A stretch of DNA of 19,209 bases from a virus (Duplodnaviria > Heunggongvirae > Uroviricota > Caudoviricetes): the IMG/VR virus record IMGVR_UViG_2684622670_000013, positions 1-19,209 of that record; one strand, 5' to 3'. The notes under the pieces were generated by a model, which saw only the letters and a list, made by a program, of their open reading frames with translations, was not told the DNA's origin and did not search any database. The translations under genes and the position numbers were made by a program. Below are positions 7,915 through 8,373 of the stretch, piece by piece. Each line of letters opens with the position of its first letter. Within the stretch, counting starts at the first letter, position 1.

Positions 7915-8373
7915 CTATTGACTAATTTCCCGCATGAATGCAATTGTTTTTGCCATTTTCTCAGAGTGATCAATTGTCTCAACGAGAAATTTTCGTGCGG
8001 GAGATTGCTCATTCTCGCCTCGGAATGTGGCGTTAATGTTTTGCATTGCTGCATTTTTCCACATGCTTACTTCTTCTATGGATTGCGATAATGATGCTGA
8101 AGATGCAGCGTCAAAGCATATACCATACGATGAATCTCGTATATCTGACGGTGACTTGCCAATAGCACTAAGTTGATTTCCATACTTTTTTACCATGTCG
8201 TTAGCCATATCCTGACAAACTTCATCAATGCTTTTACCCATGCCTGCAACATAAGGAGAAGCATCTTTTATTAAAGACATCATTTTTTCCTTATCTTTGT
8301 CGGATGCAGCATAAGCTGCGAGTGATAGAAGAACGGAAGAAAATATTGCTATTGTGAAAAATCTGGATTTCAT
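7915..8373 (-). CDS. Secreted (periplasmic) protein of unknown function, accessory gene
   Basis: 152 aa. N-terminal Sec-type signal peptide MKSRFFTIAIFSSVLLSLAAYA|ASD with an AxA cleavage motif and no lipobox. Two Cys in the mature part. AGGGGA ribosome-binding site. Convergent with the tape measure gene; the two stop codons are 8 bp apart. Confidence 0.7.
   Translation of the reverse strand: MKSRFFTIAIFSSVLLSLAAYAASDKDKEKMMSLIKDASPYVAGMGKSIDEVCQDMANDMVKKYGNQLSAIGKSPSDIRDSSYGICFDAASSASLSQSIEEVSMWKNAAMQNINATFRGENEQSPARKFLVETIDHSEKMAKTIAFMREISQ

Follow-up and report, generated by a model that had tools for sequence, protein, structure and literature searches.

A prophage gene convergent to the tape-measure gene encodes a predicted periplasmic protein, a candidate guard of the cell envelope against incoming phages

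The minus-strand open reading frame (ORF) at positions 7915..8373 of the 19,209-nucleotide viral DNA analyzed here (the window) is a real gene and evolves under purifying selection. Judged from its sequence, its product represents an undescribed family of predicted small periplasmic proteins, here called slot family A, encoded by a conserved prophage gene. The gene lies in a slot that is bounded on the left by the stop codon of a tape-measure-type gene (TMP) and on the right by a conserved promoter with a lambda CII-type site, and this one slot yields at least six sequence-unrelated, uncharacterized families of predicted secreted two-cysteine proteins across related prophages. The slot family A protein would most likely guard the cell envelope against incoming phages. 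An earlier, sequence-only reading had guessed at a lysogenic-conversion or superinfection-exclusion factor, and this guess now gains real circumstantial support from a layout shared with P22 sieA, from an accessory slot populated by predicted secreted proteins only, and from the CII-type promoter.

The ORF begins with ATG, encodes 152 amino acids, and is preceded by a ribosome-binding site recognized in the sequence, AAGGGGA (8378..8384, minus strand), 4 nt 5′ of the start codon. Its stop codon occupies 7915-7917 and the TMP stop codon TAG occupies 7904-7906, leaving 8 nt between two convergent genes, exactly the arrangement described in the sequence-only reading. The annotation as a coding sequence (stop included) draws on the ORF list, homologues, their alignment, dN below dS, and an AF2 model. 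A Sec signal peptide, MKSRFFTIAIFSSVLLSLAAYA, is predicted for codons 1-22 (8308..8373, minus strand) from sequence reading, a simple heuristic, and low pLDDT. The N-terminus reads MKSR-FFTIAIFSSVLLSLAA-AYA/AS (the slash marks the predicted cut), with a positive n-region, a 16-residue h-region devoid of charge, and an AxA c-region, and residues 1-20 have low pLDDT in the AF2 model. All family members have a signal-peptide-like N-terminus, though the N-terminal sequence itself varies. This segment is the only hydrophobic one in the protein, the remainder being a charged, soluble helical bundle according to sequence and model, and no lipobox (L-[AS]-[GA]-C) occurs at its end, where the c-region AAYA/AS has no cysteine. 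Cleavage after AYA would leave an acidic mature protein (pI about 5.2) of ~130 aa, roughly 14 kDa.

With the family alignment as input, AF2 predicts an all-alpha bundle with a mean pLDDT of 87 and a pTM of 0.79, which supplies the structure prediction that the sequence-only reading had named as a check. The two cysteines that it had noted in the mature part are C53 (codon 8215-8217) and C86 (codon 8116-8118), spanning 8116..8217 on the minus strand and located in model helices 2 and 3. Both are invariant in the alignment (26/26 homologues), and they probably form a disulfide.

Conservation in related prophages, on which the earlier proposal had been made to depend, is evident, as homologues of slot family A form 29 clusters in Enterobacterales with 44-99% identity. 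Values of dN range from 0.07 to 0.5 with dS saturated, and the single unsaturated close pair gives a dN/dS of 0.155. A chance antisense open frame that is no gene would fit with the database annotation of the homologues, which is “hypothetical protein” at most. This candidate was rejected and its probability is negligible, given homologues retained at identities as low as 44% while dS is saturated, the confident AF2 model, the ribosome-binding site, and the conserved promoter. The family is rare, with just 9 representatives among 1.84 billion proteins. Contexts were read for genomes of Yersinia, Citrobacter, Salmonella, and E. coli as well as for contigs from metagenomes and run assemblies, and they extended to the remotest profile hits. 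In all of these, the gene is convergent to the TMP stop codon or overlaps it by 4 bp, and the host elements of all examined homologues are lambdoid prophages with E217/Pa193-type contractile tails. No free-standing chromosomal copy was found among the contexts read, and the family is confined there to one position in one phage lineage.

The earlier statement that no family could be assigned holds across every database searched. Neither slot family A nor the other slot families matched Pfam, PHROGs, NCBIfam, or PADLOC profiles. Slot family A gave nothing at E ≤ 1 against Pfam and NCBIfam, which leaves the Ivy, MliC/PliC, and PliG profiles unmatched. A sequence-profile search of the PDB returned noise only, a BFVD search returned no match, and neither the fold nor the sequence matched a known exclusion protein or inhibitor. 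In a database of 50,697 phage records, P22 among them, a megablast search with the locus and a tblastn search with the protein were both empty.

Related loci were collected chiefly by an IMG/VR scan with a TMP alignment, a GTDB contig scan with a single TMP sequence having returned just one locus. Of 88 related loci, 49 have an ORF of 100 aa or more that converges on the 3′ end of the TMP gene; in the remainder the slot is empty and the TMP is followed directly by baseplate genes. The 36 unique slot proteins fall into six BLAST clusters, one of which is joined solely by two-domain fusions. In these, domain A is connected via Pro-Ala linkers to a domain found alone elsewhere (hhalign probability of 97.6% for A and 100% for C). 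Between families A, B, and E, hhalign detected no remote homology (probability ≤21%), and they are therefore treated as unrelated, despite the presence in all of two cysteines ~30 residues apart. A simple heuristic scores 34 of the 36 unique proteins as signal-peptide-like, compared with 62 of 752 control ORFs (8%) taken from the structural strand with equal freedom of start-codon choice, and this bears out the signal peptide proposed in the sequence-only reading. A sole lipobox (LSGC) occurs in the slot protein of locus L084, which is unrelated to family A and has a weak Cor-family match (E = 0.008) limited to residues 1-51. As in a moron, the gene is present or absent among syntenic relatives, and its own promoter cassette occurs only alongside the ORF; a downstream terminator of its own, also typical of morons, is missing.

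The slot promoter went unflagged in a sigma-70 consensus scan and was seen only through comparison of upstream regions. A motif scan and comparison placed a lambda CII-type site, TTGCGTGCTTTTGC, at 8419..8432 on the minus strand, a TTGC-N6-TTGC direct repeat lying 13 nt 5′ of a −10-like hexamer, TACAAA (8400..8405, minus strand). This hexamer lacks the final T and is weaker than the family consensus TAGAAT, which stands at the same place in most related loci. Just upstream of the promoter, a hairpin scan found a terminator-like element on the plus strand (8434..8455), a GC hairpin, TCCCACTCAGGTGGGA, followed by TTTTTT, and the same hairpin (GCCCACCTGAGTGGGC) recurs in 17 of 47 unique upstream regions. 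The repeat has a single match in the 19-kb window, where 1.2 are expected, and is not significant on that count alone. Across the 47 unique upstream regions, the exact box is found in 24 and most others have one mismatch, relative to a background of 0.005 per 130 nt. The box is kept before slot genes of all protein types and was not found at empty-slot loci. Furthermore, the TTGC-N6-TTGC-N13-hexamer geometry is identical in 22 other slot promoters and in PRE and PaQ of a related prophage. No structured RNA was found in the leader by an Rfam scan. The sequence-only reading had noticed neither how this promoter is built nor that the slot is polymorphic.

The arrangement of this promoter suggests that it may depend on CII. 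The window itself excludes the regulatory region; the annotation of a near-identical E. coli prophage, whose slot gene is 99% identical, includes a lambda CII family protein, and the 29-kb early region of that prophage contains only two TTGC-N6-TTGC motifs, at PRE and PaQ, both with N13 spacing. Since CII is absent from stable lysogens, steady-state expression of the slot gene is uncertain. The −10 hexamer of most family members, TAGAAT, is nearer to consensus than that of PRE (AAGTAT), which makes CII-independent basal activity plausible. At PRE, PI, and PaQ, CII recognizes TTGCN6TTGC on either side of the −35 (PMC4651098). The slot promoter resembles these lambda promoters in the position of the repeat 13 nt 5′ of the −10 and in the absence of a TTGACA-like −35 at 16-18 nt, and it resembles PaQ in lying antisense to a late-expressed gene. 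Unlike the lambda CII promoters, it drives a secreted accessory protein within a virion-structure operon. The one comparable suggestion found in the literature concerns phage epsilon34, in which sites of this kind lie upstream of the gtr conversion genes and CII activation has been proposed (PMC2629481).

The explanation that we favor, at somewhat below an even chance, is that the gene is a CII-activated moron encoding a periplasmic, envelope-acting protein that blocks superinfection. It would be an independently transcribed moron in the sieA-equivalent slot of a P22-type “ant moron”/immI region, the region itself appearing to have moved into a lambdoid prophage with a contractile tail of the E217/Pa193 type, where it separates the tape-measure gene from the baseplate genes. 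Given the CII-type site, the slot promoter is expected to be active when CII is present, upon commitment to lysogeny, with basal activity possibly persisting later. As no terminator precedes the TMP gene, the transcript would also run antisense into the late operon. The protein would be exported by Sec, cut after AYA, and folded in the periplasm into a five-helix bundle probably stapled by the C53-C86 disulfide. It would most likely stop superinfecting phages from delivering their genomes, at the step that takes place in the periplasm, and the most plausible targets would be ejected tape-measure or tail-tip proteins.

A broader form of this explanation, which we regard as unlikely, would make the TMP 3′ end a dedicated CII-switched slot for a modular periplasmic arsenal in lambdoid, E217-tailed prophages of Enterobacterales. 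Its members, at least six two-cysteine families used as stand-alone or Pro-Ala-linked domains, would intercept the TMP or tail-tip proteins of contractile-tailed phages. The cassette might fire with the prophage's own CII at the establishment of lysogeny or, in trans, with CII supplied by a heteroimmune lambdoid phage that enters the cell. Lambdoid CII proteins share TTGC-N6-TTGC specificity, and a resident cassette could thus respond to the CII of the invader. At the same time, the transcript would act in a PaQ-like manner against the late operon.

The neighboring TMP gene (6131..7906, plus strand) encodes 591 aa, and its 3′ end forms the fixed left border of the slot. Its identity as a tape measure, assumed in the sequence-only reading, is confirmed by PHROGs, alignment, and tblastn, with matches to phrog_873 (E = 6e-291), phrog_2276 (tail length tape measure), phrog_7182 (tail injection transglycosylase), and, in tblastn, tail injection transglycosylases and endolysins. 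In Pa193-type tails, the C-terminus of the TMP is located at the tail tip and is the first part ejected into the periplasm (PMC11456595). Here, the C-terminal lytic domain (approximately residues 390-520) is of the NNNPLNL...WAPSSENNT type, one of two classes, SLT-type and NNNPxN-type, that are distinguished in the TMP alignment. The slot protein could be imagined as a cognate inhibitor in the manner of T4 Spackle, binding and inhibiting the peptidoglycan-cleaving TMP domain of phages with the same tail type so that wall crossing is blocked. Slot family A would fall in the general class of Spackle (PMC7677548) and always adjoins a TMP gene with a lytic domain; its acidic mature form (pI 5.2) contrasts with the basic lytic region (pI 8.0), which is also the most mosaic stretch of TMPs otherwise 98-100% identical, as expected of a selected target. 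However, the type of slot protein is independent of which lytic domain or C-terminus the TMP has, and co-variation between them was rejected. The identical slot protein P0021 occurs with both an SLT-type and an NNNPxN-type TMP, and TMPs that are 95-100% identical occur with slot type A, with the unrelated type D, or with no slot gene. This argues against a relation of one enzyme to one inhibitor, weakens the link to the lytic domain implied in the sequence-only reading, and means that co-variation indicates no specific TMP target. Given also that no resemblance in sequence or fold to Spackle, Ivy, MliC/PliC, or PliG was found, these pairings make cognate inhibition improbable.

The protein might instead benefit the host in a way unrelated to phage entry, as a periplasmic stress, virulence, or colonization factor or as an orphan immunity protein. 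In the latter variant, it would act against bacterial toxins that work in the periplasm, such as T6SS effectors or bacteriocins. Many unrelated families of small, secreted, putatively disulfide-bonded proteins swapped at one locus, some in tandem, do resemble periplasmic immunity arrays, and prophage morons often carry host-fitness factors (PMC3594210). Despite these parallels, we consider a host-benefit role rather unlikely, as the restriction of slot family A to one position and one lineage, the positional equivalence of the slot to sieA, the coupling of expression by the CII-type promoter to infection and the choice of lysogeny instead of a signal from the host, and the lack of a match to any immunity or virulence family all weigh against it. 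The transcript, with the ORF secondary, is very doubtful as the selected function. Such an RNA would be a CII-activated antisense into the tape-measure and late operon, damping it as PaQ does while lysogeny is being established. Its promoter architecture and antisense orientation are those of PaQ in the related prophage, conservation is higher in the slot promoter than in the gene downstream of it, and no convincing terminator separates the ORF from the TMP gene or lies in the first ~280 nt of antisense TMP, where a hairpin at chance level is reached. Nevertheless, the slot promoter was never seen without an ORF for a secreted protein, the slot ORFs are under purifying selection, and the signal peptide is kept in six unrelated families, whereas a role of the RNA only would need none. 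The two functions of the slot gene could coexist, and the CII-activated, superinfection-blocking moron is the reading that we carry forward.

To our knowledge, detailed understanding of soluble periplasmic blockers of phage entry is essentially limited to T4 Spackle, and the entry blockers that we know to have been described for temperate Gram-negative phages are membrane proteins or lipoproteins. The slot proteins would provide a compact set of candidates for anti-phage or conversion factors that act in the envelope. The lambda CII regulon targets the repressor, integrase, and anti-Q; if the slot promoter is truly CII-dependent, it would add a fourth target class and link the lysogeny decision to remodeling of the periplasm. 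If exclusion is the function, escape mutants would point to the component of E217/Pa193-type myoviruses that crosses the periplasm, a poorly understood step. The broader, modular interpretation, if true, would give temperate Gram-negative myoviruses a new class of superinfection-exclusion proteins, soluble and periplasmic, under infection-responsive control.

The closest parallel in gene organization is offered by P22. Its sieA gene is convergent, lies 22 bp past gene 16, and has its own promoter with the mnt terminator upstream. In the window, a P22-type immI module (9456..11067), recognized by Pfam Arc, PHROG Ant, Rfam, and identity to phage CUS-3, comprises an mnt-like Arc-family repressor (9456-9698, minus strand), a small RHH arc-like ORF (9804-9944, plus strand), the sar antisense RNA (10139-10206, minus strand; Rfam RF00262, 82 bits), and the antirepressor ant (10381-11067, plus strand), with mnt/ant 94.6% identical to those of CUS-3. 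In both phages, a gene of ~150-165 aa with its own promoter directly follows the last ejection-type gene in convergent orientation (at a distance of 22 bp in P22 and 8 bp here), and upstream of it come the terminator of the mnt operon and, in turn, mnt, arc, sar, and ant. Among related prophages, several unrelated sequence types likewise fill the slot (PMC10883804). E. coli loci such as L001, L012, and L016 even retain the P22 PsieA leader (GGTATCCTGCRCAAAACTAA) just upstream of the CII box; P22 PsieA itself has no TTGC-N6-TTGC box. The two systems differ in that SieA is a polytopic inner-membrane protein, whereas slot family A is predicted to consist of one signal peptide and a soluble helical domain, and no similarity to SieA types A, B, or C was detected with PHROGs or by tblastn in the 50,697 phage records. 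Furthermore, P22 is a podovirus with ejection proteins, whereas the phage that carries slot family A is a myovirus and has a tape measure.

Prophage envelope proteins that block DNA injection, TP-J34 Ltp and HK97 gp15, have the TMP implicated as their target, and the tape measure is where escape mutants or hybrids map, as cited in PMC10883804 and PMC3952083. Profile searches detected no homology of slot family A to either. Ltp is likewise an exported helical protein; unlike slot family A, which has no lipobox, it is a lipoprotein of a Gram-positive host. HK97 gp15 is a predicted inner-membrane protein, whereas slot family A has no membrane anchor. T4 Spackle (gp61.3) is a periplasmic helical bundle with a cleaved signal peptide and one disulfide that inhibits the tail lysozyme, excluding superinfecting phage via a tail-borne cell-wall hydrolase (PMC7677548). 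It differs from slot family A in its shorter mature form (75 aa compared with about 130 aa) and in being the product of an early gene of a lytic phage, and slot family A has no sequence or fold match to it. The general class would be the same, as slot family A has a signal-peptide-like N-terminus, a modeled helical bundle, and two invariant cysteines, with cleavage and one disulfide predicted. In function, the slot family A protein may be a soluble counterpart, located in the periplasm, of P22 SieA, TP-J34 Ltp, and T4 Spackle.

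The gene at the 3′ end of the tape-measure protein (TMP) gene, a position referred to here as the slot, is a minus-strand ORF of 152 aa (7915-8373) with a ribosome-binding site, AAGGGGA, 4 nt 5′ of its ATG. The TMP ORF (6131-7906, plus strand, 591 aa) ends in TAG at 7904-7906 and the slot ORF stops at 7915-7917 on the minus strand, leaving exactly 8 nt between the convergent genes, as the sequence-only reading had stated. That reading had also claimed a Sec signal peptide and two cysteines in the mature part, and both are borne out. The N-terminus (MKSR-FFTIAIFSSVLLSLAA-AYA↓AS) contains the n-, h- and c-regions of a predicted Sec signal peptide and no lipobox, and the mature part (predicted at about 130 aa, 14.3 kDa, pI 5.2) carries C53 (codon 8215-8217, minus strand) and C86 (codon 8116-8118, minus strand), which are invariant in the family alignment. 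Structure prediction, recommended at that stage, gave a confident AF2 model from the family alignment (pLDDT 87, pTM 0.79), in which disordered residues 1-20 precede five main helices.

The protein could not be assigned to a family from sequence alone, and this still holds, as no relative was found in the Pfam, PHROGs, NCBIfam and PADLOC profile libraries, by sequence search of the PDB, or in BFVD. A search of 5.8 billion proteins, addressing the conservation in related prophages on which the earlier reading had hinged, returned 29 clusters of homologues at 44-99% identity (family A) in E. coli, Enterobacter, Citrobacter, Salmonella, Yersinia, and Cronobacter. Only 9 proteins matched the family A profile in an exhaustive search of 1.84 billion representatives, and the family is therefore very narrow. 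Within it the signal peptide varies in sequence and is constant in presence, and the motifs PY-x2-G-x-G, ANDMV-x2-YG, SP-x-DIR, and E-[IV]-x-MW are kept. Diverged copies show dN of 0.07-0.5 with saturated dS, and one close pair gives a dN/dS of 0.155. Annotations are hypothetical throughout, apart from one JGI label, “ABC-type sugar transport substrate-binding protein,” which is a clear mis-transfer. For one protein cluster (P0003, 121 aa, on 209 contigs), many public entries have the gene begin at internal Met31/32, which cuts off the signal peptide; such mis-starts would conceal its secreted nature in automated surveys. The slot gene is thus real, and its product is a helical, two-cysteine protein, predicted to be secreted, of a new family. 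Neither family A nor any of the other slot families has been described before.

Every family A homologue with readable context is convergent to the TMP stop or overlaps it by 4 bp, including the most distant profile matches (P0034 and P0037), and the remainder of the insert (Arc, Ant, P63C, KilA-N, and DUF2513-like genes) is variable or missing among homologous loci. With 76 further loci gathered from IMG/VR by TMP alignment, a slot ORF (convergent, 100 aa or longer, between -20 and +30 nt from the TMP stop) was found in 49 of 88 loci having a recognisable TMP; elsewhere the TMP gene is directly followed by baseplate genes. The 36 unique slot proteins fall into six BLAST clusters. The largest holds family A, stand-alone family C (NFSSLDNASRSW...LCGSGG), A-(Pro-Ala)n-C proteins, and A-like-plus-D proteins, and only the fusion proteins hold it together; the others are family B (AC[IVL]GLAQK...DC), family E (VDCN...CQ), and three singletons, one of them a lipoprotein. 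By hhalign, family A matches the fusion N-domain (97.6%, E=3e-12) and family C the fusion C-domain (100%), and no relation was found between family A and B or E. The two-domain proteins of loci L050, L052, L061, and L065 (272-287 aa) join a family A to a family C domain through linkers of 6 to 20 residues, or three to ten Pro-Ala repeats, which resemble extended periplasm-spanning linkers. Searches of Pfam and PHROGs found none of the slot families except the lipoprotein singleton of locus L084 (208 aa, lipobox LSGC, six cysteines), which matches phrog_26209, of unknown function; it also shows a weak match, limited to residues 1-51, to the Cor superinfection-exclusion family (E=0.008).

Nearly all slot proteins have exactly two cysteines per domain. 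By a simple n/h/c-region heuristic, 34/36 have signal-peptide-like N-termini versus 62/752 control ORFs on the structural strand with the same freedom of start choice, and the remaining two are visibly signal-peptide-like as well. This indicates that selection at this site favours a secreted product irrespective of fold. The slot has a fixed place at the TMP 3′ end and holds an accessory cassette, in which a conserved promoter precedes a variable secreted-protein gene.

Alignment of upstream DNA revealed a leader of roughly 60 nt common to slot genes of different protein types, reading 5′ to 3′ as a hairpin (AAAAAGCCCACCTGAGTGGGC), then TTGCGTGTTATTGC, 13 nt, TAGAAT, and 24-27 nt with AAGGA before the ATG. 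The lambda activator CII binds TTGC-N6-TTGC, flanking the -35 of promoters PRE, PI, and PaQ (PMC4651098), and P22 and epsilon34 use this site too (PMC2629481). Its sole occurrence in the 19.2-kb window, TTGCGTGCTTTTGC (8419-8432, minus strand), is not significant alone (1.2 expected), and the candidate -10 hexamer TACAAA (8400-8405, minus strand) follows 13 nt after it. The 29-kb early region of a near-identical E. coli prophage contains the motif twice only, in a leftward PRE copy at the 5′ end of cII (TTGCGTTTGTTTGC-N13-AAGTAT) and a PaQ copy antisense inside Q (TTGCGTGGCTTTGC-N13-TAGGAT), so that all three share the same geometry. The exact motif occurs in the right orientation in 24/47 unique slot-upstream regions, 22 of these 24 with N13 to a TAnAAT-like hexamer, against a background of 0.005 per 130 nt; most other regions are one base off. 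The element is also present at the two most divergent family A loci, and no box was found within 1.5 kb at empty-slot loci. The argument for a CII-type promoter thus comes from positional conservation before unrelated genes together with shared geometry. Judged by these sequence features, the slot promoter would be CII-activated, and the protein would then be produced once the phage commits to lysogeny, with basal expression afterwards.

The window covers the structural half of the prophage, with tail genes of the E217/Pa193/Pam3 type that include a DUF3383 sheath, Baseplate_J, Wedge1, and a sheath initiator. The insert between the TMP and baseplate genes holds a complete P22/CUS-3-type immI module (9456-11067), comprising an mnt-like Arc-family repressor (9456-9698, minus strand), an arc-like small RHH ORF (9804-9944, plus strand), the sar antisense RNA (10139-10206, minus strand; Rfam RF00262, 82 bits), and the antirepressor ant (10381-11067, plus strand). 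Part of the insert is 94.6% identical to the podovirus CUS-3, which indicates that this “ant moron,” as Casjens and colleagues named the P22 region (PMC2629481), is exchanged between tail types. Between mnt and the slot gene lie a second Arc-family RHH gene (9172-9408, minus strand) and, directly after it, a gene for a 138-aa protein (8745-9161, minus strand; phrog_585, E=2e-17; annotated DUF2513 in E. coli), and the two may make up a small pair of regulatory, toxin-antitoxin-like or defensive character. Divergent from the slot gene is a candidate, protein-like 92-aa ORF (8481-8759, plus strand) with very weak PHROG matches; its start region also occurs, unannotated, 5′ of slot genes in E. coli (L002) and Salmonella (L007). 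The near-identical E. coli prophage with the PRE and PaQ copies lies in chromosome NZ_CP035822, where it carries the slot gene at 99% identity; its early region is lambdoid (LexA-family repressor, Cro, lambda CII family protein, nin genes, Q, and lambda-type lysis genes).

The slot protein is proposed to act in the periplasm against superinfecting phages, probably at the point where the TMP and tail-tip proteins exit the tail. In Pa193 the C-terminal end of the TMP, anchored at the tail tip, is the first part to be ejected, and opening of the cell wall is proposed to be the task of a TMP lytic domain (PMC11456595). Functional precedents are SieA, the P22 superinfection exclusion protein (PMC10883804), Spackle (PMC7677548), and Ltp and HK97 gp15, for which evidence from escape mutants or hybrids points to the tape measure, as cited in PMC10883804 and PMC3952083; the epsilon34 gtr genes, which block superinfection, have likewise been proposed to have CII sites ahead of them (PMC2629481). 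Against exclusion stand the lack of homology to any known exclusion protein, a slot type that does not co-vary with the TMP, and the weak -10 hexamer of the window copy. CII is, moreover, absent in a stable lysogen. A host-benefit or immunity-type conversion factor is an unlikely alternative, though the least unlikely of those weighed. No terminator was found 3′ of the slot ORF, so transcription must continue antisense into the TMP gene. A locus with mainly an RNA-level, PaQ-like function is an unlikely reading.

A Spackle-type inhibitor of a cognate enzyme is likewise an unlikely reading of the slot protein. The TMP matches phrog_873 (E=6e-291) as well as the PHROGs families for tail length tape measure and tail injection transglycosylase, and its residues about 420-530 match lytic proteins of tails, and also endolysins, from many phages. 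TMP lytic domains in the lineage are of two unrelated classes, canonical SLT (E-S...AGxxQxMP) or an NNNP[LG]N...WAPxSEN type, but an identical family A protein (P0021) accompanies the SLT type in a single Yersinia genome and the second class in two others, and TMPs 95-100% identical over their full length go with family A, an A-like-plus-D protein, or an empty slot. Slot type and TMP variant are independent, which leaves a strict enzyme/cognate-inhibitor relation unsupported. The lytic region is itself a mosaic hot spot: residues ~360-520 fall to 52-85% identity where TMPs are otherwise 98-100% identical (loci L002, L003, and L012), making this a site of recombination or diversification inside the gene. 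The anatomy of the slot is well supported, and exclusion is offered as a proposal for its function.

The layout of the slot copies that of P22 sieA. In P22, sieA is convergent to gene 16, 22 bp past its stop, and has its own promoter; the mnt terminator lies upstream, and after it come orf59a, mnt, arc, sar, and ant; the placement of the window gene is exactly alike. In several E. coli loci, CATCTGGTATCCTGCGCAAAACTAAC, just 5′ of the CII box, matches the P22 sieA promoter leader CATGGTATCCTGCACAAAACTAAGGAGG (L001, about 9860-9890, and the upstream regions of L012, L016, and L018; P22 locus L095, 1340-1370). Since this leader is kept, the slot cassette appears to have replaced sieA downstream of PsieA, and constitutive and CII-type promoters may stand in tandem in these copies. 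A moron, or independently transcribed accessory gene, encoding an envelope protein in the sieA position is an already known kind of element; what is new is that the product is predicted to be soluble and periplasmic, that the slot is polymorphic and modular in what it holds, and that a putative CII-type promoter lies within a virion-structure operon.
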